From: an uncultured bacterium
GTDB lineage: Bacteria; CSSED10-310; CALFER01
Assembly (NCBI GenBank): GCA_937951895.1
Contig: CALFER010000090.1
Span: 25,648-89,647 of the forward strand
Direction: 5' to 3'
Length of the DNA: 64,000 bases
Shown here: positions 2 through 27,030 of the stretch, piece by piece
Layout of the letters: every line of letters starts with the position of its first letter
Position numbering within the stretch: the stretch's first letter is position 1
Notes under the pieces: model-generated
Databases searched by the model: none
Told to the model about the DNA's origin: nothing
The model's input: the letters and a program-made list of their open reading frames with translations, nothing else
Position numbers and translations under genes: made by a program

Positions 2-304
2 CATACACTCAGACTCGATCAGGATCGCATGGCGTTCGATGTCGAGATCATTGTCAAGGCCGTCAGACACGGATACCGCATCCGGAATCTGGAGGTACCC
101 GTCCGCTATTTCAAGGGAAGCGAGCGTGTCACGCATTTTCGTCTGTTTCGGGACAACTGGGAGATGAGCAAGCTGCATTTCCTGTTTACCTGGGGATGCC
201 TCGTTCACTGGCCCGCCATGCTGATTCCGCGTTATGACGAGCAGTTCCGCCGACCGATGCACCGACAGCATTTCCCTATTGATTCCCGGTCGGCATCATC
301 ATAG
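2..304 (+). CDS. C-terminal fragment of a family-2 glycosyltransferase (DPM1-like); the gene starts upstream of the window
   Basis: Frame is open from the window edge. The translation ...GYRIRNLEVPVRYFKGSERVTHFRLFRDNWEMSKL resembles GT2 C-termini. The stop is at 304. Confidence 0.45.
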   Translation, partial: HTLRLDQDRMAFDVEIIVKAVRHGYRIRNLEVPVRYFKGSERVTHFRLFRDNWEMSKLHFLFTWGCLVHWPAMLIPRYDEQFRRPMHRQHFPIDSRSASS

Positions 305-357
305 CATGTTGTGCTGCTCCGGCGGCGAGACTCTCAACTACAGGAGGCACCATCCCA

Positions 358-1692
358 TTGTCCGCACTCAACCCACCCTATACCGATCGACGTGCTCTTC
401 CGATCTCGTTTTATCCGCTCCTGAGCGCTGAAGACGACGTCGATTCGGCCGCCATCGACCGCTTTACTGACTCACTCAAACAATCGGAGCCACCGGATCG
501 TTCGACGCTTTTGTACATCCACGTGCCCTTTTGCGAGTCCATATGCCGGTTCTGCGGATTCTATCGACGTCTGACGACCGATTTTGCGCCGCTCTCGCGC
601 GCCGAACTTCTCGATCGATTCACCTCGGCGCTGACCCGCGAGATCGCTTGCTGGCGCACCGTGATCGACCCGGGGGTGCATGCCATCGAGAGCATCTACA
701 TCGGAGGAGGCACCCCGAGTCTGCTCTCGTGTGCGAACATCGAAGCAATGATCGGAACCTTGCGCCGGCAGTTCGACCTGAGAGCGGATTGCGAGATCAC
801 TTTCGAAGGTGAGGTGCGCTCGATCGGCGATCCGGAGAAGCTATCCGTATTGAGGGATCTCGGTGTGACCCGTGTTTCGTTCGGTGTTCAGACTTTTCAC
901 GAATCCGTCCGGAAACTCAACGGCCTCCAACCGACTCTCGACCAGATCCGCCGCTGCGCGGACCGCGTGCGCAACGCCGGTTTCCAGGTCAACGTCGATC
1001 TGATGTACGGCCTCCCGTCACAGGATTTCGAGATCTTCATGAACGATCTGAGCATCGCCGTGCATGAACTCCGGGTATCACACATCGATCTGTACGACAC
1101 GATTCTCTACCCGAACATCGATCTCTTCACCCGGCGCGAAGTGTTTTCAGGAATGCTCCCCCCGGAGGAGGAAGGCGTTCGGATGCTGATGCGCGCAATC
1201 GAGTTCTTCCGTTCGGAGGGTTTCGTTCAACTCACGGCGGATGATTTCGTCCGGCCCGGAGCCGAGTATCGCATGAAGGATCTGATCTACGGGAGCCGCT
1301 CGGGGCATTCCCAGGTGCTCGCCATGGGACCCGCCGCCGTCGGATATCTCGGATACACGTCCTACCGGAACGAAGTTCTCGAACACTATCTGCCCTCTGA
1401 CTGGCAGCGTCCGACGATTCAGAGATTGCGCACGAGTGACGATCATGAGAAAGCCAACCGCGCGCTTATTTTTTATCCGAAGCGTCTGATGTTGAATGTG
1501 CCGGATCACTGCATCGAGCCATCACCTGAAGGCAAAGCGATTCTGGAACGTCAGATCGCCTGCGGGCTGGCGCAGCGACAGCCTGACGGGATTGTCCGGG
1601 CAACTGAACTGGGCAAACTCTGGGTCGACTCGATGTCCGCCGAATTTCTCAGCCCATCCGAAAAGCGCCGGATATTCAAACTGGTTCAGTAG
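358..1692 (+). CDS. Radical SAM enzyme of the HemN/HemW (class C) family. In this context it is more likely an acyl-chain modifying enzyme than a coproporphyrinogen oxidase.
   Basis: The CxxxCxxC motif sits in HVPFCESICRFCGFY. Length is 444 aa. TTG start with AGGAGG 9 nt upstream. It is the first gene of a translationally coupled operon. Confidence 0.8.
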   Translation: MSALNPPYTDRRALPISFYPLLSAEDDVDSAAIDRFTDSLKQSEPPDRSTLLYIHVPFCESICRFCGFYRRLTTDFAPLSRAELLDRFTSALTREIACWRTVIDPGVHAIESIYIGGGTPSLLSCANIEAMIGTLRRQFDLRADCEITFEGEVRSIGDPEKLSVLRDLGVTRVSFGVQTFHESVRKLNGLQPTLDQIRRCADRVRNAGFQVNVDLMYGLPSQDFEIFMNDLSIAVHELRVSHIDLYDTILYPNIDLFTRREVFSGMLPPEEEGVRMLMRAIEFFRSEGFVQLTADDFVRPGAEYRMKDLIYGSRSGHSQVLAMGPAAVGYLGYTSYRNEVLEHYLPSDWQRPTIQRLRTSDDHEKANRALIFYPKRLMLNVPDHCIEPSPEGKAILERQIACGLAQRQPDGIVRATELGKLWVDSMSAEFLSPSEKRRIFKLVQ

Positions 1693-1702
1693 CGGTTCCG
1701 TC

Positions 1703-3028
1703 ATGAAGATCCTTTTTGTCTATCCCCGATTCCGCAAGTTCCTCGATGACCTGTCCCCCGAGGATCGATCATTTTTCGAGCCGATCCTGGGCGGTTTCAA
1801 AACCCCGCCTTCCCTGGGCATCCCGATTCTGGCGGCGCTGACCCCCTCCCGCCACCACGTCGAACTGCTCGATGATAATCTCGGAGAATCCGTCCGATTC
1901 GATACCGACGCGGATCTGGTGGCCATCAACTGCTTTACCCCCCAGGCCACACGAGCCTTCGAGCTGGCGGATGGATTTCGCGCCGCGGGGAAACGGGTGA
2001 TCATGGGCGGCATTTTCCCTTCGGCCATGCCGGATGAGGTTCTGGAGCATGCGGACGCGGTGAATATCGGAGAGGGTGAGCCGACCTGGAGGGGGATTCT
2101 GGAGGATGCCGAACGGGGTGAACTCAAGCGACGATACCTGGGCGGGAAGGGATTCGATCTGGCGTCGATGCCGATTCCCGATCGATCTCTGTTTTATGCC
2201 AAAGCAGGTTATGATTGGCATTCCGCCCTGGTCCAGATCGCCAGGGGCTGTGGCTACAACTGCGCCATGTGCGTAATCCCCGAGCATTTCGGACACAGGA
2301 TTCGATTCCGGCCCATCGCAGACATCGTTGAGGAGATCAGGGCGCTGCCATATGACCAGATCTATCTCGCGGACGACACCCTGTTTCTGACCGACCGCCG
2401 GAGCGTGCAGTATGCGACGGATCTGTTCGCCGCGCTGGCCCCGCTGAAGAAGCGGCTGTTCCTTTCCTCGACGCTCGCGCTCAATACGGATCTCGAATTC
2501 CTCAAGCTCGCCCGGACAGCCGGTACGGAAACATTTTACTGTACCTTGAACGTCGATCCCGTTTCGATGCGGGCAATCTATCCGGAGACCCAGACGCATC
2601 GCAGGCGGCTCATCGATCTGGTACACGCCATCAAAGATCTCGGCATCCACTTCTACGCCTCGTTCGGGATCGGCCGGGACTGGGATGATGCGAGCATCAC
2701 GGAACGGATTCTGGAGTTGAGCGTGCAGGCGGGAATCGATATCGCGGAATTCTTTATTTTCTCGCCATTCCCGGGATCCGTGCAGTTCCAGCGGATGAAC
2801 TCGCAGAAACGATTGTTGCACCGCCGCTGGGAACTCTATAACGGAGCCAACGTCGTCTACCTGCCCCTGAAGATGGATCCGGATGTTCTCCAGGACGTTT
2901 TCATGCGGACCTGGCGTGAGTTTTATCGCATAAACCGCCGCGACTGGGTGCTCGAACGCATGGGAAAGCACACCTCGAAGAGTCCGCATCCCGATCATGA
3001 CGTTCCGGGCGGATTGACCCCGAGATGA
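1703..3028 (+). CDS. B12-binding domain radical SAM protein (class B radical SAM methyltransferase-like)
   Basis: The N-terminal MKILFVYPRF...GIPILAALT...VAINCFTPQ...VIMGGIFPS is a cobalamin-binding Rossmann-like domain. It is followed by the radical SAM motif ARGCGYNCAMCVIPEHFG. The track ORF 1496-3028 is an upstream extension overlapping gene 1. ATG at 1703 fits the family N-terminus. Confidence 0.8.
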   Translation: MKILFVYPRFRKFLDDLSPEDRSFFEPILGGFKTPPSLGIPILAALTPSRHHVELLDDNLGESVRFDTDADLVAINCFTPQATRAFELADGFRAAGKRVIMGGIFPSAMPDEVLEHADAVNIGEGEPTWRGILEDAERGELKRRYLGGKGFDLASMPIPDRSLFYAKAGYDWHSALVQIARGCGYNCAMCVIPEHFGHRIRFRPIADIVEEIRALPYDQIYLADDTLFLTDRRSVQYATDLFAALAPLKKRLFLSSTLALNTDLEFLKLARTAGTETFYCTLNVDPVSMRAIYPETQTHRRRLIDLVHAIKDLGIHFYASFGIGRDWDDASITERILELSVQAGIDIAEFFIFSPFPGSVQFQRMNSQKRLLHRRWELYNGANVVYLPLKMDPDVLQDVFMRTWREFYRINRRDWVLERMGKHTSKSPHPDHDVPGGLTPR

Positions 3029-5427
3029 CCGGGTACGCCCGCATCGCGATTACCGGGATCGGCGTCGTGAGCCCGATCGGATCGACAATCGACGCCTTTC
3101 TGGAATCCCTCAGCCAATCCCGCTGCGGCATTCGCCCGATGCAGGCATTCGACACCTCACCATTCCGGACAAATCTGGCCGGTGAGATTCCGGAGTTCGA
3201 TCCGCGGGATGAGTTGACGGACGACGAGATCGCCGAGTGGGGCGATCGGTATCTCTGGCTGGCGCTGTCCGCCGCACGGATGGCGATCCGGGATGCCGGT
3301 TACAGCGAGGGTTTCTCTGGAGCCCGCACGGTCGGAATCGCCGCGGGAACGTGCAACGGTGGATTACAGACCGCCGAACGGCTGTACCGGATGTTGCATG
3401 GAAACGAACCCGGGCATGTCGACGAACGGATGAACATCCTGTTCCGGTATTTTGCTCTGGGGCGCGCGCTTTCGAAGGTGTTCGCGATCGGAGGACCGGT
3501 GCATATCGTGACCACCGCGTGCGCCTCATCAACCGGCGCGCTGGGCCTGGGAGCCGACATGATCCGGTCCGGGCGCGCGGACTGCGTGCTTGCCGGAGGA
3601 GCCGATGCGTTGTGTCTGACGGCATATTCCGGTTTCAGCGGCATCAAGGCGATGGCAACCGGAATGACGACCCCATTCTCGGGCGCCGGAGAATACGGAT
3701 TGAATCTCGGCGAAGGAGCCGCCTTCTGGATTCTCGAGCACTTCGACGGGGCGATTGCGCGACAGGCGCGGATCTATGGTGAATTGCTGGATTACGGTCT
3801 TTCAGCGGATGCCTACCATGTCACGGCTCCTGATCCTCAGGGCGCAGGGACTCTGCGAGCCATGCGGTCCGCTCTGGAACGATCGGGAATCACCCCCGCG
3901 GAACTGGGATACATCAATCCGCATGGAACCGGAACCGAAGCCAACGATCGTTCGGAGTCTCGTGCAATCGAGAAACTGCTCGGTGACTCGAGTCTCACGG
4001 TACCGGTCAGTTCCTCCAAATCGTTTTTCGGACACTGTCTCGGAGCTGCGGGAATCCTGGAAGCTACGGCGTCTTTGCTCAGCATGCGAGCGGGTGTGAT
4101 CCCGCCGACGCTGAATTTTACCGACCCGAGACCAGGCTGCCGGTTGGATTATGTCCCGAATCAGGCAAGGCCGGCGCAATATCGTGCATTTCTGTCCAAC
4201 AGCATGGCATTCGGAGGCAACAATGCGGCGGTTTGCGTTAGTCTGGCCGGTGAATCTCCGCGTAACGGAACCGCGGCATCGGAGCGCAGGCGGGTCGTCA
4301 TAACGGGAACGGGAGCGGTGTCGCCGTTCGGACTGGATCCCGCCGCCCTGCTCACGGGACTCGCCACCGACCGATCAGCCATCCGCCCGATCGACCGTTT
4401 CAGCACTGACCATTGCGCATCACATCGAGCGGGTCTCGTTCCTCAGACCGATTGGAAACGTGCGGATCGCCGGATGAATCTCCAGGACCTGGAACCCCTC
4501 AGCCGCTATGCGACGTTGGCCGCCCGTCAGGCCCTCGATTCGGCGAATCTCAGGGTCACGCCCCGCAACTGTGATGCGGTCGGAATGATTCTCGGGGTCT
4601 GTGTCGGCCCGAACGAAGAAGTGCTGATGAACAGCGTCTGGGGTTCGCCCGACCACACACCGGACCTCGGGAAGTTTTCGGTCATCGTCGCCAATTCCGT
4701 CAGTGGGTGCGCATCCAAGGAACTCTTTTTGAAAGGCTATAACACCGTGCTTTCACCGGGGCATCACGCAGGCATGGCCGCGCTGATCCAGACCCAGGAC
4801 GCCATCGAACTCGGCCATTGCAACTCGATCGTCTGCGGGGCGAGTGATGAACTGTTTGCACGATACTTCTATAATTATGACACGGTGGGGTATCTGGCCC
4901 GTGCCTGCGATGAAATCCGATATGGCGAAGTGCTTCTTCCGGCCCGTCAGCGGGTTCTGGGAGAGGGGGCCGCTGCGCTGCTCGTGGAATCGCATGCGAC
5001 CGCCATCGAGAGCGGGCATGCGATTCTGGCCGAGATTCTCGGATCAGGCATGATCCACGACCCCGGACCGCTGCTCGAAGGCTGTCAATCCGAAGCCGGC
5101 CTTCTCGCCGCCATCGAAATCGCGTATGCACGCTCCGGTGTCGACCCGCGGCGCACGCAGTGCATCCTGCGCGCCCCTCAGGGGAATGCGGATGACCGAT
5201 TCGAACTCGGTGCAATCGAGCACTTTTTCGATCGATTTGGTGTTCATCCCTCCCGGCGCACGACTGTATTCCAAACCGGGTATGCCGAATCGGTTTCCGT
5301 ATTGTTCAACGTGGTGGCTATGTTGAACGGCTGGCGGGACGAGGCCATGCGCCTGCCGGGACACGTTCTGGTAACGGCATCGACGCTGATGGGGTACCAT
5401 TACGCGATGATCATGGAGGTTTTGTGA
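3025..5427 (+). CDS. Tandem ketosynthase didomain protein: N-terminal FabF-like KS with a full Cys-His-His triad, fused to a second KS-fold domain lacking the His motifs (CLF-like)
   Basis: Domain 1 has ITGIGVVSPIG, TACASS (active Cys), INPHGTGTEANDRSE and SSSKSFFGHCLGAAG. Domain 2 restarts with VVITGTGAVSPFG, has ANSVSGCASKELFLKG, but no HGTGT/GHxxGAAG motifs. The ATGA overlap with the upstream gene indicates translational coupling. Confidence 0.8.
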   Translation: MTGYARIAITGIGVVSPIGSTIDAFLESLSQSRCGIRPMQAFDTSPFRTNLAGEIPEFDPRDELTDDEIAEWGDRYLWLALSAARMAIRDAGYSEGFSGARTVGIAAGTCNGGLQTAERLYRMLHGNEPGHVDERMNILFRYFALGRALSKVFAIGGPVHIVTTACASSTGALGLGADMIRSGRADCVLAGGADALCLTAYSGFSGIKAMATGMTTPFSGAGEYGLNLGEGAAFWILEHFDGAIARQARIYGELLDYGLSADAYHVTAPDPQGAGTLRAMRSALERSGITPAELGYINPHGTGTEANDRSESRAIEKLLGDSSLTVPVSSSKSFFGHCLGAAGILEATASLLSMRAGVIPPTLNFTDPRPGCRLDYVPNQARPAQYRAFLSNSMAFGGNNAAVCVSLAGESPRNGTAASERRRVVITGTGAVSPFGLDPAALLTGLATDRSAIRPIDRFSTDHCASHRAGLVPQTDWKRADRRMNLQDLEPLSRYATLAARQALDSANLRVTPRNCDAVGMILGVCVGPNEEVLMNSVWGSPDHTPDLGKFSVIVANSVSGCASKELFLKGYNTVLSPGHHAGMAALIQTQDAIELGHCNSIVCGASDELFARYFYNYDTVGYLARACDEIRYGEVLLPARQRVLGEGAAALLVESHATAIESGHAILAEILGSGMIHDPGPLLEGCQSEAGLLAAIEIAYARSGVDPRRTQCILRAPQGNADDRFELGAIEHFFDRFGVHPSRRTTVFQTGYAESVSVLFNVVAMLNGWRDEAMRLPGHVLVTASTLMGYHYAMIMEVL

Positions 5428-7679
5428 AAGGGACGGCGGAGGTTCTGGTCACCGGGATCGGTATCGTATCCCCGATCGGAAATTCGGTTTCGGCCTTTCT
5501 GAACGCGTTGAAATCATCGAAATCCGGCATCCGTCCGATCGATCTCTTCGATGTAGCTCAGTTCAGGTCACATGTGTATGCACCGGCACATATCGAAACC
5601 TTGCCGGAACTCTCGGATCCCCCTGACACGGCGACCTGGGACCGGCATCTCCAGCTCGGCTATTTCGCTCTCAGGGATGCCCTGCGCGATGCCTCGATCG
5701 ACCGCGATCGCATTCCTGCACGAACCGGTCTGGTCTGTGCAACATGTTCCGGTCCGATGCTGACGATTGAAGCCGAGTATCTTCAGACGCCGATCGTACC
5801 GGGAGCGGGGGCGCGAACGGAATCCGTGTATCGGGATTACCGGCGGTATTACTCGATGGAGCGGACTCTCGTTCGCGTTTTCGGCATTCGTGGATTTTCG
5901 ACCACGGTTGTGACGGCGTGCGCCGCGAGCAGCAATGCGATCGGGCTGGGAGCCGATCTGATCGCCGAGGGCATTCTCGATCAAGTGTTCGTGGTCGGTT
6001 CGGATGCCTTTTCACCGTCGACGTTTGCCGGGTTCGATTTTCTGAAAGCCACCTGCATATCGGAATGTGCGCCGTTTTCGGACCCCGCCGGCATGAATCT
6101 GGGAGAAGGCGCCGGGGCCTGGGTGCTTGAAAACGGTGAGGTCGCCCGGCGACGGGGATCGAGGATCAGGGGACGGGTTCTGGGGTATGGCCTGAGCAAT
6201 GATGCCTACCATGCGACCGCGCCGGATCCGCAGGGCGAGGGGGCGATACTTGCGATGACCCGAGCCATGCATGATGCGGCGATCGACCCGGCATCCATCG
6301 GATACATCAACGCACACGGCACAGGAACGCTTCCGAATGACAGGACGGAATCGAGAGCGATCACGCGCGTGTTCTCCGATCGGACACCACCTCCGGTCAG
6401 TTCCTCAAAATCGTTCTTCGGTCATGCACTCGGTGCTGCAGGGATTCTTGAAGCATCCGCATCGCTGCTCATGATGAATGATGGCCTGCTGCCTCCGACA
6501 TTGCGATTCACGACCGCCCGGGAGGGTTGCGGACTGGATTACGTGCCGAATACGCCTCGCAAGACGGATGCCGGAGTGTTCTTGTCGAATAACTTCGCGT
6601 TTGCCGGCAATAACTCGGCGCTCTTGGTTGGAACAGTCGGGTGCGAAACCTCTTCCGCACGGGAATCGATGCCCAATGAAGTGGTGATCACGGGTTACAG
6701 CAGTCTGATGCCGGACGACACACGTGATCCGGCCGATCCGCGATCGTACACGTTCGACCTCGCGCGACTGGCACAGATGGATCGCCGTTTGCCCCTGAAG
6801 GAGATGGATGTGTCCAGTCAACTCGCGACACTGGCATCGAAGCGCGCGGTCCAGCATGCCGGATTATCGTTGAAGCCGCCGGATGCCAGGCAGATCGGCA
6901 TGATTCTTGGCCTCTGTGACGGTCCGAATCGCGGAGAAGCGGCGCATCTCAGGAGCATCGCGGTTTCCGGCCTGTCCGCTCCGAATCTCGTCATGTTTCC
7001 CTACATCGTCCTGAATTCGGTTGCCGGACAATGCTCGCGAGCATTGGGACTCAAAGGGTTTTCGTCGACTCTCTGCGGAGCCCCCGGTGCGGGGCTCCAT
7101 GCACTGATCTATGCCGCACTCGCAATCCGGCGCGGGCATGCGTCGATCTGTCTGGCATGCGGAGTCGATGAACGCCAGGAGTCGTATGTGTATGTGGATG
7201 AGAGTTCACATGCGGATGCCGGAATCGAGGATCGGCCTGTCAGTGACGGGGCGGCGTGCCTGGTTCTGGAGTCCGCCGGGTCCGCTCATGCGCGTCAGGC
7301 GAACGTCCTGGGCCGTTGGTTGAGCGGGTCGAGTTCCAATCTGGGGCCGGATCGATCCGAGGTGAACATCGGGCGTGAATGGGAGAGGTTCATTGAAGAA
7401 CTGGGCATCCCCCGCCGATCGATCGCAGGGATCGTGGTCGATGCCGATTATGGCATCGACGCGAAACGGATCGAGGAAGTGGCCCGGCGGTTTTCCTCCT
7501 CGACCGGAGCGAGGATTATCAGCGGAACGGAAGCCGGAAGCGCCCGTTCGTTGTCTTCCGGAGCACTCCGCAACATCTCGATCGCGCTGCAGATCCCGAA
7601 CTGTTCGGGGAAAACAGTCCTGACCGCCTACCTGTCGTCACTCGGACAACTCGGACTGATTGCGCTGCGGATCGAATAA
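5424..7679 (+). CDS. Second tandem KS/CLF-like didomain protein, paralogous to 3025-5427
   Basis: Domain 1 has VTGIGIVSPIG, TACAASSNAIGLGAD, INAHGTGTLPNDRTE and SSSKSFFGHALGAAG. Domain 2 has VVITGYSS...LNSVAGQCSRALGLKG without the His motifs. GTG start in a GTGA overlap, GGAGG 4 nt upstream. Confidence 0.8.
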   Translation: MKGTAEVLVTGIGIVSPIGNSVSAFLNALKSSKSGIRPIDLFDVAQFRSHVYAPAHIETLPELSDPPDTATWDRHLQLGYFALRDALRDASIDRDRIPARTGLVCATCSGPMLTIEAEYLQTPIVPGAGARTESVYRDYRRYYSMERTLVRVFGIRGFSTTVVTACAASSNAIGLGADLIAEGILDQVFVVGSDAFSPSTFAGFDFLKATCISECAPFSDPAGMNLGEGAGAWVLENGEVARRRGSRIRGRVLGYGLSNDAYHATAPDPQGEGAILAMTRAMHDAAIDPASIGYINAHGTGTLPNDRTESRAITRVFSDRTPPPVSSSKSFFGHALGAAGILEASASLLMMNDGLLPPTLRFTTAREGCGLDYVPNTPRKTDAGVFLSNNFAFAGNNSALLVGTVGCETSSARESMPNEVVITGYSSLMPDDTRDPADPRSYTFDLARLAQMDRRLPLKEMDVSSQLATLASKRAVQHAGLSLKPPDARQIGMILGLCDGPNRGEAAHLRSIAVSGLSAPNLVMFPYIVLNSVAGQCSRALGLKGFSSTLCGAPGAGLHALIYAALAIRRGHASICLACGVDERQESYVYVDESSHADAGIEDRPVSDGAACLVLESAGSAHARQANVLGRWLSGSSSNLGPDRSEVNIGREWERFIEELGIPRRSIAGIVVDADYGIDAKRIEEVARRFSSSTGARIISGTEAGSARSLSSGALRNISIALQIPNCSGKTVLTAYLSSLGQLGLIALRIE

Positions 7680-7798: not shown

Positions 7799-8119
7799 AT
7801 GAATGCGTCAATCGAAAACAGAATAGCGACCCGGTCGGCAGTGATTTCCCGTGTCAAACGCGATCTGATCCAGAGGCTGTCACTTTCTTATACCGAAGAG
7901 GATCTGCATGAAGATGCATCGCTCATCGGCTCCGGTCTCGGACTCGATTCACTCGATGCGCTCGAAATCATTCTCGGGATCGAACAGGAATTCAGGGTCA
8001 AGATCGAGGAAGGCAACATTTCCGTGTTGCGCTCCATCAATACGATCGTCGACTATATTCTCGAAAATCAAACACACCCGGCCGCGTCGGCGCAGGTCAC
8101 GGAAGGAGGCACACGATGA
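7799..8119 (+). CDS. Acyl carrier protein
   Basis: The phosphopantetheine-site motif LGLDSLDALEI is present. About 106 aa if started at ATG 7799, which has AGGAAGGA upstream. The track ORF starts earlier at 7718. Confidence 0.75.
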   Translation: MNASIENRIATRSAVISRVKRDLIQRLSLSYTEEDLHEDASLIGSGLGLDSLDALEIILGIEQEFRVKIEEGNISVLRSINTIVDYILENQTHPAASAQVTEGGTR

Positions 8120-9231
8120 CGTACAGGTCTCCCCTGCATGACCTCTCAGTATCACGAAATGCCGTGCTGACGTCGCGGGACGGATTCACCGCGGTCTCGC
8201 GTTATCGCCCGCTGGAAGACGAGTATCGCACCATACGAGAAGCCGTCGGAATGACCGATTTTTCGCATTTCCAGAAGTTCTGTTTCCGGGGTGAGGAGGC
8301 GCTGTATTTTCTGGACGAGATTCTGCCTGCGAACATCGCCAACATCCGCTACGGCCGCGTCATCCACACGTTTCTCGCAGATGACGATGGGAACCTGTTG
8401 AGCGATGTGTATGTGGCGAATCAGGACGATACGATCTGGATGATCTGCGAGAGTTGCGTTGAAACCGCCGTCATCGAACAGCGGCTGGCTGCTGCGAATA
8501 GCCACCGAATTCCTTACGACCACCTGACCGACTCGTTTGCGGCATTCTCGATCGACGGACCGCAGGCCTGGGCGGTGGCGCGTGAGATGTTCGGCCCGGA
8601 TGTGCTGGGGATGCCCTACCTGTCCGTCGAACTGCACGATGAAAGCGGCGATGGCATCGTGCTGCTGCGCACAGGCAAAACCAGTGAGTTCGGATACCTG
8701 ATGCTGGTGCCGGTCGCGCGTTGCAGGGATGTCTACGAGCGTCTGCTGGCTCTGACAGAGACCCGGAGCGGGGCGGCATGCGGGATCGATGTGTTCGACA
8801 TCCTCAAGCTCGATGGTCGTTTCTTCAACATCAACCAGGAAGGGCGGATCGTCCGCGATCCTCTCACGCTGGGACTGCAATGGATGATCGACTTTCAGAA
8901 GGATACGTATCACGGCAAGTCAGCGATCGACAGGCGGCGTGAATCCGGATTGACTCGGAAGATCATCGGTTTGAAAGCACTCGCAGCGGGAACGCCGATG
9001 AATCGTGATACACGGATCGTTTCAGGTGAAGAAACAGTGGCTGAGGTCGTCACCGTGGGCTACTCGCAGGCACTGGACACCCAGATGGCGCTGGCATTGT
9101 TCGACATCCGTTATGCCTATTCCGGACTGGAGTTCATCGCGCAGACCGAGACTGGAAACGTGCCGGTGCAGACGGTATCGCTTCCTCCGTTCATCCCCCG
9201 GAGCCTCACGATCAAACTCGATGAGATGTAG
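8116..9231 (+). CDS. GcvT-fold (aminomethyltransferase / YgfZ-like) folate-binding family protein
   Basis: 371 aa. Overall resemblance to glycine-cleavage T-protein family proteins, for example the N-terminal ...IREAVGMTDFSHFQKFCFRGEEALYFLDEIL. ATGA overlap with the ACP stop. Confidence 0.55.
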   Translation: MTYRSPLHDLSVSRNAVLTSRDGFTAVSRYRPLEDEYRTIREAVGMTDFSHFQKFCFRGEEALYFLDEILPANIANIRYGRVIHTFLADDDGNLLSDVYVANQDDTIWMICESCVETAVIEQRLAAANSHRIPYDHLTDSFAAFSIDGPQAWAVAREMFGPDVLGMPYLSVELHDESGDGIVLLRTGKTSEFGYLMLVPVARCRDVYERLLALTETRSGAACGIDVFDILKLDGRFFNINQEGRIVRDPLTLGLQWMIDFQKDTYHGKSAIDRRRESGLTRKIIGLKALAAGTPMNRDTRIVSGEETVAEVVTVGYSQALDTQMALALFDIRYAYSGLEFIAQTETGNVPVQTVSLPPFIPRSLTIKLDEM

Positions 9232-9237
9232 TCGGGC

Positions 9238-9675
9238 ATGAAACGGGAGATCCGCGGATCGATCGATATCCGGGTCGAGTTTCGTGATGTGGATATGCTC
9301 GGAGTCGCGCACAACTCGGTTTATTTTCTTTGGTTCGAGCGCGGGAGACTTGCTCTGCTCGAATCGATCATTCCCTTTCAAACCGCATTGGATCAGCAGA
9401 TCGCTCTGATCGTCGTGCGGCAAACCTGTGAGTACCATGCTCCGGCGCTCCTCGGAGATGATCTGATCCTGACGACACGTACCGATCTGTCTGATGCCTA
9501 TGGCGGCCGCATTCGATGCGCGCATACGCTTTCCAATCGTCGAACCCTGATCGAGATTGCCTCGGGGGAAACGGATCTGACCATGTGGAACATCGAATCA
9601 CGCAAGCTGATACGCGAGATACCCGATTTCATCCGGACTCGGATCCGGGATCTCCTGCATGGAGTGACGTCATGA
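9238..9675 (+). CDS. Hotdog-fold acyl-CoA/acyl-ACP thioesterase (4HBT/YbgC-like)
   Basis: 145 aa. [30 protein letters not shown] is typical of 4HBT thioesterases. Its stop overlaps the fabG-like start (ATGA). Confidence 0.6.
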
Positions 9676-10418
9676 GCACGTTGCTGGAAGGCAAAACCGT
9701 CATTGTGACGGGAGGAACGCGAGGAATCGGACGGGCGATTGTCGAATGCCTGCATCGTGAAGGGGCCCGGGTCTGGTTCACGTACATCCGGAGCGATGCC
9801 ATCGCCGCCGAGATGCAGCAGTCGCTTGACGGTGTCCGCTCGTTCCGGATCGACGGAACCGATCGATCCGCGATCGCGGCGTGTCTGGACGAATGCCAGT
9901 CGACGTGCGGCGCCCCCGACGTCCTCGTCAACAATGCGGGCGTGACCAGCAACATGTTCTTCCCGATGATGAATTCCGAAGAGTGGAACAGGGTCATCGC
10001 AGCGAATCTCACCACCGTGTTCAACTGGACGAGGGAAACGATCCGGCCGATGTTGATCGCGCGGAAAGGATCGATCATCAACATTGCCTCCGTGTCGGGC
10101 GTCTTCGGAGTCTCGGGTCAGTCGGCCTACAGTGCCTCCAAAGGAGCGATGCTGGCGTTTACCCGGACCATCGCCGCTGAAACGGCATCGAAAGGCATCC
10201 GAGTCAATGGAATCGTGCCTGGATTCATCGACACGGAGATGACGGCGAAGATACCGAAACCGCTTCGGATGAAATACCTCGAACGCATCAGCATGCAACG
10301 GTTCGGGACACCGGATGAAGTCGCATCGGTCGTTCTGTTTCTGGCCTCGGATCTCTCATCGTATATCACCGGTCAGACCATCATCGTCGATGGCGGTTTG
10401 ACGGCGACCTTCAACTGA
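9672..10418 (+). CDS. fabG: 3-oxoacyl-ACP reductase (SDR, FabG-like)
   Basis: [23 protein letters not shown] contains the NAD(P)-binding motif. The catalytic-region motifs ...SVSG...YSASKGA are present. The track ORF 9516 is an upstream extension. Confidence 0.8.
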
Positions 10419-10419
10419 G

Positions 10420-11352
10420 ATGAAAACGGCGTTTCTGTTTCCCGGACAGGGTTCGCAGTTTGTCGGCATGGGTCGCGATCTCGTCCGATCATCCCCCTCC
10501 GCACTTGCGCTTTTCGAACGCGCGTCCGAGATTTCCGGAATCGATATCGCCGCTGCGTGTGTTCGCGGCCCCCTGTCGCGATTGTCCCGGACCGATGTGC
10601 TTCAGCCGTGCATCACAACCGTCAACCTCGCGGTACTCGAAGAACTCACCGCAAGGGGCGTCCGAGCGGAAGCGGCGGCCGGCCATTCGCTGGGTGAGTT
10701 TTCCGCATGTGTGGCCTCGGGTGTATTCCCGGCGGACACCGCCATCGAATTGACAACCCGCCGCGGACATCTGATGCACGAAGCGTCCATATCGACGCCG
10801 GGAACCATGGCTGCCGTCATCGGTTTACCGGCCGATCGGATCGAGTCCCTGATCAGCGTTCGCTGCGATCCGTTGCTGGTGGCCGCGAATTTCAATGCAC
10901 CGGATCAGACGGTCGTATCGGGACCGCGCGCGGCCATTGACTCACTTTCCGCTTCGATACGTGACGAAGGCGGTCGAATCGTCTTTCTTCAGGTTTCAGG
11001 TGCCTGGCACTCTCCGGCTATGAATTCCGCCGCAGATCTCTGGAAAGATGCGGTCGATCGAGTTCCGATCCGTCCTCCGGCGATCGATCTTTACATGAAT
11101 GTATCGGGTTGCGCCGAGTCCGACCCGTCCGCGATACGCCGATGCATGGAATCCCAGTTGGTCCGTCCTGTTCGCTGGACGACGATCCTGACGCACATGT
11201 ATCGATCCGGTGTTCGCCGGTTCCTGGAAATCGGCCCCGGAACGGTTCTCAGGCAACTGCTCCGCGCCAATCCTTTCCCGCCCGAAAGTTACACCGTGCA
11301 CTCCGTCGCTGATATCAGAAGCATCGATAATCTCCTTGCCCACTCCCCCTGA
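10420..11352 (+). CDS. fabD: Malonyl-CoA:ACP transacylase (FabD-like)
   Basis: MKTAFLFPGQGSQFVGMG and GHSLGEFSA (active-site Ser) are present. 310 aa. Confidence 0.85.
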   Translation: MKTAFLFPGQGSQFVGMGRDLVRSSPSALALFERASEISGIDIAAACVRGPLSRLSRTDVLQPCITTVNLAVLEELTARGVRAEAAAGHSLGEFSACVASGVFPADTAIELTTRRGHLMHEASISTPGTMAAVIGLPADRIESLISVRCDPLLVAANFNAPDQTVVSGPRAAIDSLSASIRDEGGRIVFLQVSGAWHSPAMNSAADLWKDAVDRVPIRPPAIDLYMNVSGCAESDPSAIRRCMESQLVRPVRWTTILTHMYRSGVRRFLEIGPGTVLRQLLRANPFPPESYTVHSVADIRSIDNLLAHSP

Positions 11353-11384: not shown

Positions 11385-12860
11385 GTGACGATGACGCTCC
11401 GACTTGCCGTTCCCTGTATTGTTGTGCTCTTGTTTGCGATTCCGTCGAGTCTGTCGACCCCGCCGCAACCGTATGAATTCGATTACGGCCAGAGTCGCCC
11501 GGGGGGACTCGATCGGACTTTTGATCATAACAGGACTCCGACGATCGATCATGTGAGGGAATGGGAGCAGATCTGCCTTTTCCTGGATCGATGGCAGGTC
11601 AGCGATCCGACCGACCCCGAATTCGGAGGCATGATCGAAGATGAGTATCGAACGGGTGCGGATCGGATCGTCGAATCCGACAACACGCAGGAGGCGATTT
11701 TCGCCTGGTGCCGGTACATGGAACTGACGGGATCGACGCAATTCGATCAGAATGTCACCGACGCCTGGACCTACCTCACGGTATTCCCGGCCTGGCTGGA
11801 AGAACCCGTTCACTATGCTCTCTGGAATTGCGCGTGGGGCATTCAGGCTCACAGACAGTATCAAAAAACCTACGCATCGGATGCGCACCGCGCTTACGCA
11901 GACCAGTGCGCCGAATTCATTCTCACGCATGATCTTTCTTTCCAGGGCACTCCGCCGCAGGTGGGCTACCGGAACGTGTTCATCACAGCCTGGGCTGCCT
12001 ATCATCTCCATCTGTTTGCCTCGGAAGCACCGGATCCGGATCTGATTATCCGCGCGGAAAACATGGCAACCCGCGTCAGGGATTGGCTGGCCGAGGATCC
12101 GGCGAACATTCTGAAAACCGGATGGGCGCTGTCGGGGGGTGCGGCTGCGGCCGCGGTGATCCATGTGCTGTATCATGACGATCCCGAAGGAGCGTTGGCG
12201 TACTATGAAGCGAATCTGCTGGACATGCCTCTGTACTTCGATCCGGCCGATTTCAATCCCTCCTCGTGGATCCACGCCTGGGACAGTTTTCTTGCACTCG
12301 CCCAGAACACCCTCTGGCGCGTCACACAGCGGTTTGAATTCCGCTTGAATGCGCTCGAACAATCCGAATTCATGCGATCGCACGATGGGGACGGCGACGG
12401 AGGGATTCCTCCGAATCCTTCGATGTCGGACACCGAGGATCACACCTGGGTATCGACCTACATCACGGTGATGGGATTCGATATGCTGGATGAACCGTCT
12501 CGGGTCAGTCTTTCGATGCCGGACTCATCGCTTGCAGCCGGTGATCGCATGGAGGCGGGAATCCAGGTTGTCGCTCCGGGATTGGATCGAACTGCCGACC
12601 TGTATCTCGTTCTCGAAATCGCCAACCAGTTTCTGTTCTTCCCGCAGTTCACGGACCAACCCGAAGCCATACGGCTTGTTTGCCCGATCGGGTACGATCT
12701 CGCGGCAGCTCTCGGTTTCCAGGACACCATCCCCTTCCTGACAATTGATCCGTGGCCGTCAGCCGGCTCATTTTCGGCCACCTGGTGGGCCGCATTGATC
12801 GACCCGGCCACATCTGAATTGATCGGTGATCTCATTACCCTGCCGTGGGCCTCGGAATGA
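11385..12860 (+). CDS. Secreted hypothetical protein (signal peptide), function unknown
   Basis: Hydrophobic N-terminus MTMTLRLAVPCIVVLLFAIPSS. GGAGG RBS. No recognisable catalytic motif. Confidence 0.5.
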   Translation: MTMTLRLAVPCIVVLLFAIPSSLSTPPQPYEFDYGQSRPGGLDRTFDHNRTPTIDHVREWEQICLFLDRWQVSDPTDPEFGGMIEDEYRTGADRIVESDNTQEAIFAWCRYMELTGSTQFDQNVTDAWTYLTVFPAWLEEPVHYALWNCAWGIQAHRQYQKTYASDAHRAYADQCAEFILTHDLSFQGTPPQVGYRNVFITAWAAYHLHLFASEAPDPDLIIRAENMATRVRDWLAEDPANILKTGWALSGGAAAAAVIHVLYHDDPEGALAYYEANLLDMPLYFDPADFNPSSWIHAWDSFLALAQNTLWRVTQRFEFRLNALEQSEFMRSHDGDGDGGIPPNPSMSDTEDHTWVSTYITVMGFDMLDEPSRVSLSMPDSSLAAGDRMEAGIQVVAPGLDRTADLYLVLEIANQFLFFPQFTDQPEAIRLVCPIGYDLAAALGFQDTIPFLTIDPWPSAGSFSATWWAALIDPATSELIGDLITLPWASE

Positions 12861-12895
12861 GCCCGGCTCACCTGACGAACAGGAGCGGCGCTGCG

Positions 12896-14242
12896 ATGAA
12901 CGAATCCAGACGGACACTGATAGAAAACGCACGGATCTGGGCGGGACCCGGATCGGAAATAGAACACGGTGCGATTGCTTTCGAGGGGAACCGATTCATC
13001 GATCCGGCAACAGCCAGGGACGATCCGGGCAGCATTCGGAGAGACGGGAGCAATCTCCTCCACATGCCGGGCTTCGTGAACGCGCACGGCCATCTTTACA
13101 GTGCGCTCGCCCGAGGCATGCCGGCACCTCCCCGGCAAGCCGGAAACTTCGCGCAGATTCTGGAATACATCTGGTGGAGGCTGGACAAGGCACTGGACCC
13201 GGAATCCCTATTGATGAGTGCATACACCGGGATTATGGACAGCATCCGCTCCGGGGTGACCACGATCTTCGATCATCATGCGAGCCCTCGTGCCATCGAC
13301 GGCAGTCTTTCCGTAATTGCGTCGGCACTCAAGGATATCGGGATGCGGGGAGATCTCTGTTACGAAGTTTCGGATCGCGACGGAACAGCCGCGGCCCGGG
13401 CTGGAATCCGGGAGAACGAACGGCACCTCGAGTCGCTCAGACAACATCCCGATCCGCTTCTGGCCGGCCATTTCGGCCTGCACGCTCTGTTCACGCTTTC
13501 AGACGAGACACTGAAGGAATCGGTTCAGGCGGCGGAGAAACTCGGAACGGGGTTTCATGTTCATGTGGCGGAGGGTCCGGAGGATGTGGAACTCTCTCAG
13601 ACCCGTCACGGCATGGGGCTAATCCCGAGAATGCTGAAACACGACATGCTCAGACCCGATACATTGCTGATCCATGGCGTGCATCTGACTTCGGATGATC
13701 TGGCGACGCTTGCCCGCCACCCGGTCACGCTCGTGCACAATCCCCAGTCCAATCAGAACAATGCGGTCGGATTCTGCGATATCACAGCCGTTCATGATGC
13801 CGGAGTCAATCTGGCACTCGGGAACGATGGAATCGGAGGAGCGATCCTCCCCGAGCTTCGTGCGGCGGTGTTTGCAGGACACCATGCCGCCCGGTCACCG
13901 GGCAGGCCTTCCTGGGCGCTCCCGTTCTCGATGCTCATGCACGCCAACACTACCCTTGCAACAAAGGCGTTCGGCATCCCGATCGGAAGAATTGAGCCGG
14001 GATATGCCGCGGATTTCATCACGGTCGACTACATCCCTCCGACACCCTGGACCATAGACAACACCATCGGTCATTTCCTGTTCGGATTGTGTGAACGGCT
14101 TCGGGTGCATGACGTCTGGGTGAACGGCACTCAGGTTTTAGGCGGCGGACGGTTCATCCGGATCGACGAGGATCAGATCGCGGAGCGAAGCCGGGCGGCC
14201 GCGACAGCAGTATGGGAAAAACTCTCCGCCGATCGATTGTAA
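12896..14242 (+). CDS. ssnA: SsnA-family aminohydrolase (amidohydrolase superfamily)
   Basis: HMPGFVNAHGHLYSALARGM...ILEYIWWRLDKALDPESL...IFDHHASP closely parallels E. coli SsnA (PGIVCSHNHFYSGLSRG...WWRLDRALDEESL...IDHHASP). ATG 12896 has an AGGAG RBS. The track ORF starts at GTG 12845. Confidence 0.75.
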   Translation: MNESRRTLIENARIWAGPGSEIEHGAIAFEGNRFIDPATARDDPGSIRRDGSNLLHMPGFVNAHGHLYSALARGMPAPPRQAGNFAQILEYIWWRLDKALDPESLLMSAYTGIMDSIRSGVTTIFDHHASPRAIDGSLSVIASALKDIGMRGDLCYEVSDRDGTAAARAGIRENERHLESLRQHPDPLLAGHFGLHALFTLSDETLKESVQAAEKLGTGFHVHVAEGPEDVELSQTRHGMGLIPRMLKHDMLRPDTLLIHGVHLTSDDLATLARHPVTLVHNPQSNQNNAVGFCDITAVHDAGVNLALGNDGIGGAILPELRAAVFAGHHAARSPGRPSWALPFSMLMHANTTLATKAFGIPIGRIEPGYAADFITVDYIPPTPWTIDNTIGHFLFGLCERLRVHDVWVNGTQVLGGGRFIRIDEDQIAERSRAAATAVWEKLSADRL

Positions 14243-25319: not shown

Positions 25320-27030
25320 TCCATCGGGAATACGCAGCATTACCCATCAGTTTCTGCATCATCGCCCGAGGTGCATCCGCCAGATCTACAGCGACAAGCG
25401 CATCCGTTGTGTGATTGAAGCGCGGATCGACATTGAACTGAACGATCTTACCTCCCAGATTCAAATACTGACGCACGAGAACCGGTATTTCGGCAGATTC
25501 CGGATCGATGTCAGCGATCACCTCAGATAACTCATCGATCGAACGAACGAACTCAACGATCGACCGGTCATCCTGCATGAATCGCCGACGCCAGCGATAC
25601 GGGTTTCGTGGTTTGACGAAGGAATGCAGATCGGTATGAAAATGGTGCATTTTCAGATAAGCGAGAATCAGTTGGACAGTGCGGTGATGATATCTGGGTG
25701 AGATACTGACAACGCCGAACAGATATCGGTATTGCGGATTTTCAGAAAGGTAGCAGGCGATACCCTTCCAAAGCAAAAAGAGCGGCCAGAAGGATTTCTG
25801 AAACTCAGGAAGCACAAAAGAACGTCCCAATTCAATTGAAGGTGTTTTAAAAAGTGGCATCCCGGGGCTGAATTTAAAGAGCGTAGACGTATAAATACCA
25901 ACCATCCCCCTGAGTCTCAGTTGTTCATCGACAAGACCCATCCGGTATCCACCCGCTATGCGTCCTGCGTCATTGTTCCAAAGGATCACATGCAGATAAT
26001 CCGAGTCGAATCGATCGAGATCAACCGGATGACCGGTACCTTCACCGGCCATTCTGAAGGTGAACTCACGCAGCAGTCCAATTTCGGAAATCGCATGCGG
26101 CGCGGCGCGTGAGGTGGTCAGAAACACCTCATAGTCTCCTCCCCCCACAAGCCATCGCGAACCTTTGGAATTACGCAGTTCAGATTCAATCCGGTGCAGA
26201 ACATCTCGATCTGAGGCTGGCGATAATGTCGCATCTGTTGATTGGATTTTCGAGTATCGAACAGCATCTGGTTTCATGGATACCTGGTGACCGAGGCAAT
26301 ACGTTCGAGCTCTGAGGTACGATGTTGTCATATCCTGATGCTCTTGACGATTCTGGAGATCCAACGCAATCGGACGGCCGATTCTCACGCTGATTTTCCG
26401 GCGCACTTTATTCATCAGTTCATGGGGAAGCATCAAGGTGCGCAGGCGGGGGTGTATAAGACCGAGAAGGTGAAACGGGAGACTATTCGATCCGGCGATA
26501 TATACAGGGATGACAGTTGCAGCAGTCCGCGCGATAAGACGAGCCGCGAAATTTTTCCAGGGAGGGTCCGTAATCCTTCGCTCTTTGAGACGCAGATGGG
26601 AAACCTCGCCGGCTGGAAAGAGTGCAAGAAGGCCATTGTTTCCAACGTGCTCGACAGCTTTCCGGATCGAAACCGTGTTGAAGCGGACTGATTCGTGGGA
26701 TTCAAATGGATCGATCCAGAAGAAGAACGGTTGGAGTTCTGGGATGATGCTGAGCCATTTATTGGCGAGCATTTTTGAATCGTGGCGACGCCTTTTCAGA
26801 AGCAGCGCAAGGATTAACCCTTCAATCGCCCCGAATGGATGATTGGCGACAACGATGACAGGTCCCTCCTGCGGAATTCGCTCGAGTTGCTCAGATGGAC
26901 AATCGATTGTGACTTCGAGTTCACGAAGTGCGCGTTCGATAAACGCAGGACCGCTAGCATTGGGCATCTGAACTCGCGCATATGTCTTTCTCAGCTTTCC
27001 AGGTACCGGTATCCTTGCCGCAATATTCAT
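25213..27030 (-). CDS. Bifunctional OlsF-like acyltransferase: N-terminal lysophospholipid (PlsC/OlsA-like) O-acyltransferase plus C-terminal OlsB/GNAT-like N-acyltransferase
   Basis: The N-terminal VVANHPFGAIEGL is an HX4D/E acyltransferase-type motif. The C-terminal half resembles OlsB-type N-acyltransferases. The roughly 600 aa fused architecture matches OlsF-type aminolipid synthases. Confidence 0.65.
   Translation of the reverse strand: MNIAARIPVPGKLRKTYARVQMPNASGPAFIERALRELEVTIDCPSEQLERIPQEGPVIVVANHPFGAIEGLILALLLKRRRHDSKMLANKWLSIIPELQPFFFWIDPFESHESVRFNTVSIRKAVEHVGNNGLLALFPAGEVSHLRLKERRITDPPWKNFAARLIARTAATVIPVYIAGSNSLPFHLLGLIHPRLRTLMLPHELMNKVRRKISVRIGRPIALDLQNRQEHQDMTTSYLRARTYCLGHQVSMKPDAVRYSKIQSTDATLSPASDRDVLHRIESELRNSKGSRWLVGGGDYEVFLTTSRAAPHAISEIGLLREFTFRMAGEGTGHPVDLDRFDSDYLHVILWNNDAGRIAGGYRMGLVDEQLRLRGMVGIYTSTLFKFSPGMPLFKTPSIELGRSFVLPEFQKSFWPLFLLWKGIACYLSENPQYRYLFGVVSISPRYHHRTVQLILAYLKMHHFHTDLHSFVKPRNPYRWRRRFMQDDRSIVEFVRSIDELSEVIADIDPESAEIPVLVRQYLNLGGKIVQFNVDPRFNHTTDALVAVDLADAPRAMMQKLMGNAAYSRWITFPSGSMMACRDARDSGVWGAHGSHSRSGRDSAR

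Follow-up and report, generated by a model that had tools for sequence, protein, structure and literature searches.

A HemN-like radical SAM protein of an uncultured bacterium, encoded in a type II FAS/PKS-like operon and probably outside heme metabolism

The subject of this report is a gene from an uncultured bacterium (GTDB lineage Bacteria; CSSED10-310; CALFER01) which, by its signature, would be taken for a gene of heme biosynthesis. It lies in a stretch of 64,000 nucleotides (nt) of contig CALFER010000090.1 (GenBank assembly GCA_937951895.1, positions 25,648 to 89,647 of the forward strand). We refer to this whole stretch as the window and give all coordinates within it; features are on the plus strand unless stated otherwise. 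The gene, gene 1 (358..1692), encodes a HemN-fold radical S-adenosylmethionine (SAM) protein of 444 amino acids (aa). It is followed by gene 2 (1703..3028), which encodes another radical SAM protein, with a B12-binding domain. Both are part of an operon of about 11 genes that resembles type II fatty acid synthase (FAS) or polyketide synthase (PKS) systems: an ApeI-like dehydratase (DH), a GT2 glycosyltransferase, genes 1 and 2, two proteins each combining a ketosynthase with a chain length factor (KS-CLF), an acyl carrier protein (ACP), a GcvT-like protein, a thioesterase, a ketoreductase (KR) and a FabD-like transacylase. A first-pass annotation of this DNA had warned that gene 1 would be auto-annotated as an oxygen-independent coproporphyrinogen III oxidase and that the name would probably be wrong. 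We consider it very probable that gene 1 is not a heme enzyme and that it belongs to the lipid or polyketide operon in which it is found.

Gene 1 compared with HemN, HemW and ChuW

Domain searches in Pfam and NCBIfam, the predicted fold and the phylogenetic tree all identify gene 1 as a HemN-fold radical SAM protein. Its start codon is TTG, and a Shine-Dalgarno-like AGGAGG can be read off the sequence at 343..348, 9 nt 5' of it. The radical SAM cluster motif HVPFCESICRFCGFY, with Cys59, Cys63 and Cys66, is encoded at 520..564 (the slightly longer stretch 514-564 encodes YIHVPFCESICRFCGFY), and the GGGTP motif (G116-P120, in the context IGGGTPS) at 703..717. The C-terminal domain (residues ~354-444, 1417..1692) has a HemN_C-like fold; alignments reveal conserved LTxxGxLWxDN and RRIFKxxQ motifs in it, and the LTxxGxxW motif is common to gene 1, ChuW and HemN. 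Gene 1 exceeds E. coli HemW by about 66 residues (444 vs 378 aa), and its N-terminal extension is conserved. Because the matches to Pfam Radical_SAM (E=9e-19) and to the NCBIfam models of ChuW/HutW (7e-59), HemW (2e-44) and HemN (2e-41) are so strong, the last three in nearly full-length alignments, the similarity to HemN-like proteins is far beyond chance. Antisense open reading frames (ORFs) run across genes 1 and 2, for example one of 409 aa on the minus strand at 1769-2998. We rejected them as real genes: none matches Pfam, and we regard them as artefacts of high GC content.

The HemN/HemW signature that prompted the warning is indeed encoded, and the expected names are already in use. Relatives of gene 1 appear in databases as 'coproporphyrinogen III oxidase family protein', 'oxygen-independent coproporphyrinogen-3 oxidase' or 'anaerobilin synthase'. 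A live example of such mis-annotation is ECs_4383 of E. coli O157:H7 Sakai (L094, 18189-19526). This is ChuW, an experimentally characterised heme-degrading methyltransferase, and RefSeq labels it 'coproporphyrinogen oxidase'.

An AlphaFold (AF2) model of gene 1, built on 94 homologues, has a predicted local distance difference test (pLDDT) score of 95.5. In a Foldseek search it matched E. coli HemN (PDB 1OLT) with E=2e-29 and template modelling (TM) scores of 0.75/0.77 over 444 columns at 24% identity, and the next matches were generic radical SAM barrels with TM ~0.4. Residues Y53, H55, C59/63/66, GGGTP, E150, Q178 and D214 of gene 1 align with Y56, H58, C62/66/69, G111-P115, E145, Q172 and D209 of HemN, among which Y56, H58, E145, Q172, D209 and others are taken by us to line the two SAM sites of 1OLT. 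All the residues of gene 1 aligned with the SAM sites are invariant in its family except Thr119 of GGGTP. The model thus predicts the three-domain fold of HemN together with the residues of both SAM sites. Having CxxxCxxC, GGGTP, a HemN-like fold and these residues, gene 1 is a member of the broad HemN-like, class C-type radical SAM superfamily.

Membership of the superfamily does not make gene 1 a member of any curated family in it. Its best curated match, aligned over the full length, is to the ChuW/HutW model (TIGR04107), and even there it scores 199.8 bits where the equivalog cut-off is 400. The scores against the other NCBIfam models are likewise below their cut-offs: 152 bits for HemW (TIGR00539, cut-off 205.4), 142 for HemN (TIGR00538, 324.95), 133 for STM4012 (380) and 114 for HemZ (321).

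The first-pass annotation had also proposed looking for the C-terminal HemN_C/HemW domain, and the answer is a divided one. The Pfam domain HemN_C (PF06969) was not detected at E<=10 in gene 1, in its C-terminal 115 aa or in the relatives P0022 and P0124. Among controls, the HemW-like protein P0040 scored 39.3 bits and a ChuW only 14.6 bits. Since the superposition of the AF2 model on 1OLT runs over all 444 columns, the C-terminal domain is nevertheless structurally present in the model, too diverged for the Pfam model to find.

Several local differences set gene 1 apart from the heme proteins. The fourth cysteine of the HemN motif CX3CX2CXC (Cys71 in E. coli), which we take to be essential or at least important, aligns with Phe68 of gene 1, and the family consensus here is FCGFY. 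At the cluster motif the alignment shows CGFY(R/Q), as in ChuW, where HemN has CGCN and HemW has CDFN. The motif HNxxYW, proposed to contact heme in HemW (PMC10114718), is absent from gene 1, in which YRMKDLIYG aligns with HNLNYW of E. coli HemW.

Taken family by family, gene 1 resembles HemN of E. coli in its whole-chain fold, cluster motif, GGGTP and SAM-site-aligned residues, and differs from it in the low identity, in the fourth cysteine and in the heme-pathway context of HemN. With E. coli HemW it shares the phenylalanine at the position of the fourth cysteine, and some of its relatives are auto-named HemW; unlike HemW, it has neither HNxxYW nor a Pfam HemN_C hit. ChuW/HutW proteins share with it CxxxCxxCGFY(R/Q), an N-terminal P-[YF]-x-x-R-like motif and a C-terminal LTxxGRxW, and in ChuW, as in gene 1, Pfam HemN_C stays below threshold. 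They are different in forming a separate clade, in being only ~30% identical to gene 1 and in having chu-type heme-uptake neighbours.

The surroundings of gene 1 were searched for heme genes too. The ORFs scanned across the 64-kb window included no heme-pathway gene, in agreement with the first-pass annotation, and none lies in the 10 kb upstream of it, viewed on the same or sister contigs L001 and L095, where heme genes lying just off the window would have spoken for a true HemN or HemW. A tblastn search found no second HemN-like gene in the window. Unlike the chu locus of E. coli, neither the window nor 10 related loci contain heme-uptake or utilisation neighbours (chuX, chuY, transporters). 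A tetrapyrrole pair of the BchE/HemN type was also considered; we rejected it, the BchE score being 40 bits (cut-off 481) and bch or heme genes being absent.

A rare clade and its gene neighbourhoods

Close relatives of gene 1 are few. A word-indexed search with gene 1 retrieved about 28 proteins with 33-100% identity, after which the matches drop to generic HemW/ChuW-like proteins. When all 1.84 billion cluster representatives were searched with a profile, 35,691 HemN-like proteins were found and only ~8-10 clusters (at 50% identity) scored 380 bits or more. Beyond ~380 bits there is a continuum of unassigned relatives, which are also below every curated cut-off. A profile search of genome contigs had at least two true clade members among the matches listed (L006 and L007).

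For the phylogenetic placement that the first-pass annotation had suggested, a neighbour-joining (NJ) tree was built with 100 bootstraps. Its references were E. coli HemN, HemW and ChuW, database-named ChuW and HemW proteins and the partial NocN from the PDB. In this tree the gene 1 clade is separate from the ChuW clade (which includes ECs_4383), from E. coli HemN, from E. coli HemW and from NocN. Bootstrap support is 82% for a 24-member core, 99% for a 15-member subclade that includes the window protein and 68% for the split between the gene 1 family with its unnamed neighbours and the named references. Judged from its sequence relationships, gene 1 appears to belong to a rare clade of its own that is neither HemN, HemW nor ChuW, within a reference set that had no Jaw5 or NosN. 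The suspicion that its automatic name is wrong is thus well founded: gene 1 scores below the HemN, HemW, HemZ and ChuW cut-offs, has no fourth cysteine and no HNxxYW, and falls in a separate clade. The tree holds one further curiosity. P0048 of Catellatospora chokoriensis, which NCBI names HemW, groups with the unassigned neighbours of the gene 1 clade and not with E. coli HemW; its name may be another over-annotation.

What accompanies these genes is informative. The sister contig L095, where gene 1 is 71% identical, has the entire operon in identical order, from the ApeI-like dehydratase through the acyltransferase (AT): ApeI-like DH, GT2, HemN-like gene, B12-domain radical SAM gene, two KS of ~800 aa, ACP, GcvT-like gene, 4HBT thioesterase, KR and AT. 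Contig L005 (46% identity) retains only the ApeI-like DH, GT2, gene 1, gene 2 and the two KS proteins. More distant members have architectures of their own. In a Chloroflexota metagenome-assembled genome (MAG) the clade locus (L086) contains two B12-domain radical SAM genes, an LpxL-type acyltransferase, a KS, a CLF, a KASIII-like protein and an acyl-AMP ligase, and on a JGI contig (L087) it contains B12-domain radical SAM genes, KS, CLF, ACP and KR. The Desulfobacteraceae MAG contig QZKV01000190 (L003, 3900-19200) encodes three HemN-like paralogues, two of which each immediately follow a B12-domain radical SAM gene; five KS, an ACP, a DH, a KR and a ferredoxin complete the cluster. In a Polyangiaceae MAG (L006, 5990-10210), two successive B12-domain radical SAM genes precede the HemN-like gene, and KS genes are present.

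All clade contexts seen, in Chloroflexota, Desulfobacteraceae, Polyangiaceae and the lineage of the window, are KS-based type II FAS/PKS-like clusters with extra radical SAM genes. An ACP gene is found in most of them, not in all; heme genes are found in none. The KS/ACP setting noticed by the first-pass annotation is therefore no peculiarity of the window, as it recurs in at least four lineages devoid of heme genes. The pairing of a HemN-like gene with a B12-domain radical SAM gene likewise recurs in independent architectures, though adjacency is not obligatory.

Two neighbouring groups may be mentioned in passing. In a neighbouring clade, P0031 is encoded in an aryl-polyene-like cluster with ApeP/ApeI dehydratases, ACP, KS/CLF, KR and a phytoene-desaturase-like oxidase. 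The cultured Tumebacillus lipolyticus (L096, 4017-10699) has two HemN-like genes, ~30% identical to gene 1 and each followed by an MFS transporter. They adjoin two M16 peptidases and ORFs of 44 and 77 aa, and the locus looks like one for a ribosomally synthesised and post-translationally modified peptide.

Gene 2 and the rest of the operon

Gene 2, identified by Pfam, its homologues and an AF2 model, encodes 441 aa from the ATG at 1703. A longer ORF opens at 1496; this start is unsupported because homologues of gene 2 are 436-445 aa long. The product has a B12-binding-like Rossmann domain at residues ~36-129 (1808..2089; PF02310, 39 bits with a cut-off of 32.1) and a CxxxCxxC motif at Cys183/187/190 (2249..2272) that is invariant in 55 homologues. 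The radical SAM Pfam domain PF04055 is just above its cut-off (29.7 bits vs 29.5). Genes 1 and 2 had been described as translationally coupled. They are indeed adjacent and coupling is plausible, yet they do not overlap: 10 nt separate the stop codon of gene 1 from the ATG of gene 2. The downstream junction is tight, the stop of gene 2 overlapping the start of the first KS gene in ATGA at 3025-3028.

The family of gene 2 is larger and better conserved than that of gene 1, with 55-86% identity in many MAGs of Myxococcota and 'Deltaproteobacteria'. In five database proteins (P0146, P0180, P0165, P0183 and P0192) a radical SAM protein of the gene 2 type is fused to the N-terminus of a KS in a single ORF. 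One locus, L089, has a gene 2 orthologue and two KS proteins without any HemN-like gene. In the AF2 model of gene 2 (pLDDT 89), the last ~27 residues are disordered and linker-like. From the fusions, the pairing in L089 and this tail, it follows that gene 2 is tied first of all to the KS proteins. The idea of a class C and a class B enzyme as a pair therefore holds in so far as a HemN-like gene recurs beside a B12-domain radical SAM gene; an obligate pair it is not, given L089 and the KS fusions.

What gene 2 does is less easily said. The best Foldseek match of its model is AprD4 (6FD2) with TM 0.73; the cobalamin enzymes MgmA, TsrM, CysS, OxsB and TokK and the methylthiotransferase MiaB follow with TM 0.55-0.65. 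AprD4 is a radical SAM diol dehydratase that is not known to need cobalamin. AprD4 and the class B methylases MgmA, TsrM, CysS and TokK have the same arrangement as gene 2, an N-terminal Rossmann B12-like domain followed by a radical SAM barrel, at only 14-17% identity to it, and the fold alone leaves cofactor and chemistry unsettled. NCBIfam gave no equivalog match (TIGR04013, 70 bits vs 251; TIGR04072, 51.5 vs 360; the MgmA-type TIGR04014, 45 vs 360), and the only sequence match in the PDB was MgmA, with 35 bits over 45 residues. An Rfam search of the window and three related loci found neither a cobalamin nor a SAM riboswitch. Because AprD4 is the best fold match, no curated family accepts gene 2 and no cobalamin riboswitch was found, we treat the class B methylase label as a hypothesis; the first-pass annotation had put it more firmly than the fold and the family models allow.

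Gene 1 is preceded by the 3' end of a GT2 glycosyltransferase gene (2..304) of the polyprenyl-phosphate-sugar type, with weak NCBIfam hits of PpgS/AglJ-type GT2; this gene starts outside the window. On L001 and L095 an ApeI/FabZ-like DH, then a GT2 of 264 aa, are directly upstream of gene 1. Downstream of gene 2 are two fused KS-CLF-like proteins of 800 aa (3025..5427) and 751 aa (5424..7679). The N-terminal half of the first is FabF-like with the Cys-His-His residues, its C-terminal half is KS-like without the His motifs, and the second has the same architecture. The dedicated ACP of 106 aa has a DSL serine motif (7799..8119) and is 78% identical to the 106-aa ACP in L095. The next gene (8116..9231), whose start codon shares bases with the stop codon of the ACP gene, encodes a full-length paralogue of the folate-binding aminomethyltransferase GcvT, with 125 bits for Pfam GCV_T, 137 bits for NCBIfam GcvT (cut-off 300) and ~100 bits for T-proteins in the PDB. 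GcvT normally acts on a swinging-arm carrier, the H-protein, and an ACP-tethered substrate is conceivable for its paralogue here. A 4HBT/YbgC-type hotdog thioesterase (9238..9675; Pfam and NCBIfam), a FabG-like KR (9672..10418) and a FabD-like malonyl-CoA:ACP transacylase (10420..11352), the last clearly biosynthetic gene, complete the operon. Tight 4-nt ATGA overlaps join gene 2 with the first KS gene, the two KS genes, the ACP with the GcvT-like gene and the thioesterase with the KR gene. A scan for promoters and terminators gave only intragenic matches at chance level. Domain scans found no enoyl reductase (ER) gene in the operon, so that intermediates should remain unsaturated if no housekeeping FabI or FabK intervenes.

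Some genes outside the operon should be recorded. The AT gene is directly followed, here and in L095, by a gene for a protein with an N-terminal signal peptide (11385-12860, 491 aa; 489 aa in L095) that has no match in Pfam, NCBIfam or the PDB. Its signal peptide, and the lack of any structurally known homologue, make a part in the chemistry improbable. Just downstream, at 12845-14242, is an SsnA-like aminohydrolase (434 bits, cut-off 444). Its family includes deaminases of 5'-deoxyadenosine and of methylthioadenosine or S-adenosylhomocysteine (SAH), and the enzyme might salvage by-products of the radical SAM reactions. Farther away are a two-domain acyltransferase and GNAT protein resembling the bifunctional ornithine-lipid synthase OlsF (25213-27030, minus strand), and, after DUF6029 and unknown ORFs, an ORF at 38202-39230 (plus strand) with a weak Pfam match of 38 bits to the radical SAM enzyme spore photoproduct lyase. 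The nearest database relatives of PurH (42804-44372, minus strand) are 65% and 57% identical; the lineage appears to be poorly sampled.

Possible chemistry and its meaning

Several suggestions can be made about the reaction of gene 1. The one we prefer, to which we give an even chance of being correct, is that gene 1 is a tailoring enzyme that adds a one-carbon (C1) unit, methyl or cyclopropane, to an unsaturated enoyl- or polyenoyl-ACP, much as Jaw5 does. We infer the acyl-ACP substrate from gene context only, and the two-SAM chemistry and the outcome, methyl or cyclopropane, are presumed. Class C enzymes add a SAM-methylene radical to an sp2 carbon to give methyl, cyclopropane or related groups, and Jaw5 does so iteratively, its substrate being an alpha,beta-unsaturated thioester tethered to ACP (PMC10114718). 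One type II PKS likewise has a HemN-like methylase, CoeI (PMC9714029). That the closest curated model is the methyltransferase ChuW, with which gene 1 shares CGFY(R), we count in favour of C1 transfer.

Under this scheme, malonyl would be loaded onto the dedicated ACP by FabD and the chain would be extended by the KS-CLF proteins, KR and DH. With no ER in the operon, an enoyl- or polyenoyl-ACP would persist. Gene 1 would bind two molecules of SAM. The first would be cleaved to a 5'-deoxyadenosyl radical that abstracts hydrogen from the second one's methyl group, and the resulting SAM-methylene radical would add to an sp2 carbon of the ACP-tethered unsaturated thioester. Loss of SAH would then leave a methyl branch or, as with Jaw5, a cyclopropane. 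Gene 2 would be a separate radical enzyme, physically associated with the KS-CLF proteins and working on the same ACP-bound chain, as an sp3 C-methylase if it binds cobalamin and otherwise in a non-methylating radical step.

The known systems closest to this scheme differ from it in instructive ways. Jaw5 of jawsamycin and the cyclopropanases C10P and YtkT are HemN-like two-SAM enzymes encoded in a polyketide cluster, and Jaw5 acts on the type of substrate expected here, where the operon has no ER. Jaw5, however, belongs to an iterative type I PKS of Streptomyces, whereas the window encodes type II fused KS-CLF proteins, and the likeness comes from context, not from sequence comparison. CoeI of coelulatin is, like gene 1, a HemN-like radical SAM tailoring enzyme within a type II cluster. 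It methylates an aromatic anthraquinone carbon after cyclisation, whereas the operon in the window has components like those of FAS or aryl-polyene systems (a FabG, an ApeI-like DH and a 4HBT thioesterase) and no cyclases or aromatases.

A number of points weigh against C1 transfer or weaken the case for it. Sequence cannot by itself separate C1 addition to an sp2 carbon from hydrogen abstraction of the HemN type. A housekeeping FAS could supply ER in trans and so remove the sp2 substrate. The locus L089 indicates that a HemN-like protein is dispensable for the module of gene 2 and KS-CLF, and another clade member, in L088, is surrounded by genes for KS, ferredoxin and further radical SAM proteins, none of them a B12-domain partner. 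The deepest node of the clade, uniting all 28 members, has a modest bootstrap of 50%, and the tree left out Jaw5, C10P, YtkT, NosN, TbtI, MenK and CoeI.

The alternatives have to be seen against the same evidence. That gene 1 is a true heme protein (a HemW-type chaperone, HemN or ChuW) which stands beside a lipid cluster by chance is highly improbable. The superfamily signature, the full-length HemN fold and the automatic names of its relatives would fit such a role; scores below every equivalog cut-off, the missing fourth cysteine, HNxxYW and Pfam HemN_C, the separate clade and a KS/ACP context kept in four lineages without heme genes do not. Unlikely, too, is hydrogen abstraction of the HemN type, for example anaerobic oxidative decarboxylation that turns a released 3-carbon carboxylate terminus into a terminal alkene, or acyl desaturation independent of O2. 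Gene 1 shares fold and two-SAM site with HemN, the operon thioesterase could release a free acid, and related FAS/radical SAM clusters in Desulfotalea have been correlated with polyunsaturated hydrocarbons (PMC2649909). Yet the fourth cysteine of HemN is Phe68 in gene 1 and the HemN model scores below the ChuW model on gene 1. Moreover, all characterised non-heme HemN-like enzymes of natural-product clusters transfer C1 units (PMC10114718).

Two further suggestions involve gene 2 more directly. It is rather unlikely that genes 1 and 2 jointly form carbocycles (ladderane-like or other rings) or C-C cross-links on a polyunsaturated chain bound to ACP, which would make the operon a non-anammox relative of the proposed ladderane machinery. 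In this rather unlikely event they would act during elongation on a polyenoyl-ACP and install poly-cyclopropane or cyclobutane/ladderane-like units without oxygen. The operon does parallel anammox Cluster I, with its ACP, FabZ-like DH, KS/CLF heterodimer and B12-radical SAM (bioRxiv 10.64898/2026.05.19.726425), 'ladderane' biosynthetic gene clusters are called in many non-anammox phyla (PMC9902471), pairs of B12-domain radical SAM and HemN-like genes recur, and gene 2 has a weak match to TIGR04072. That match, however, is so far below its cut-off that gene 2 is not an orthologue, the operon has no phytoene-desaturase-like gene, and ladderanes are known only from anammox bacteria (PMC9902471). 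More generally, anammox Cluster I and the clusters that antiSMASH calls 'ladderane-like' share with the operon a dedicated ACP, a FabZ/ApeI-like DH, a KS with an inactive CLF-like KS and a B12-domain radical SAM protein, and aryl-polyene (Ape) clusters share with it the ApeI-like DH and the GT2. The operon is different from both in that KS and CLF are fused (750-800 aa, twice) and a HemN-like enzyme is added, and in that it has no phytoene-desaturase homologue and no TIGR04072 orthologue. Quite improbable, finally, is the methyl relay proposed by the first-pass annotation, in which cobalamin on gene 2 would be supplied with one-carbon units by the GcvT-like folate protein, and two successive alkylations would be carried out, by genes 1 and 2. 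The GcvT-like protein is full-length with its folate-binding domain, its gene begins in an overlap with the stop of the ACP gene, and there is a radical SAM methylase, of class D, that employs methylene-tetrahydrofolate (PMC10114718). The proposal fares badly nonetheless, as the GcvT-like gene is conserved only in L095, the closest relative, and is absent from L005, L089 and the other clade contexts. In addition, the fold of gene 2 is nearest to AprD4, and the window and three related loci yielded no cobalamin riboswitch.

The mis-annotation as such is no novelty: the routine labelling of HemN-like proteins as coproporphyrinogen oxidases is already known, as are methylases and cyclopropanases among them (PMC10114718). 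Novelty lies in the clade, in its confinement to operons of a type II FAS/PKS-like kind (ladderane-like or aryl-polyene-like), in the recurrent and non-obligatory adjacency to a B12-domain radical SAM gene, and in the fused KS-CLF partners. Our literature search turned up no study of a HemN-like enzyme from an aryl-polyene-type cluster. For the ladderane-like clusters found outside anammox bacteria, no products are known (PMC9902471).

The contexts of the clade span several anaerobe-rich phyla. The 11-gene operon and its simpler relatives, with or without the HemN-like gene, form a natural comparison set for assigning the chemistry of both radical enzymes. The set could also lead to new ways in which lipids are modified anaerobically, a matter of interest for biomarkers and strained-ring fuels too. 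If genes 1 and 2 install rings, a new class of strained-ring or heavily branched membrane lipids or glycolipids would exist in uncultured non-anammox bacteria, and the operon would offer a tractable model for the unsolved ladderane problem.

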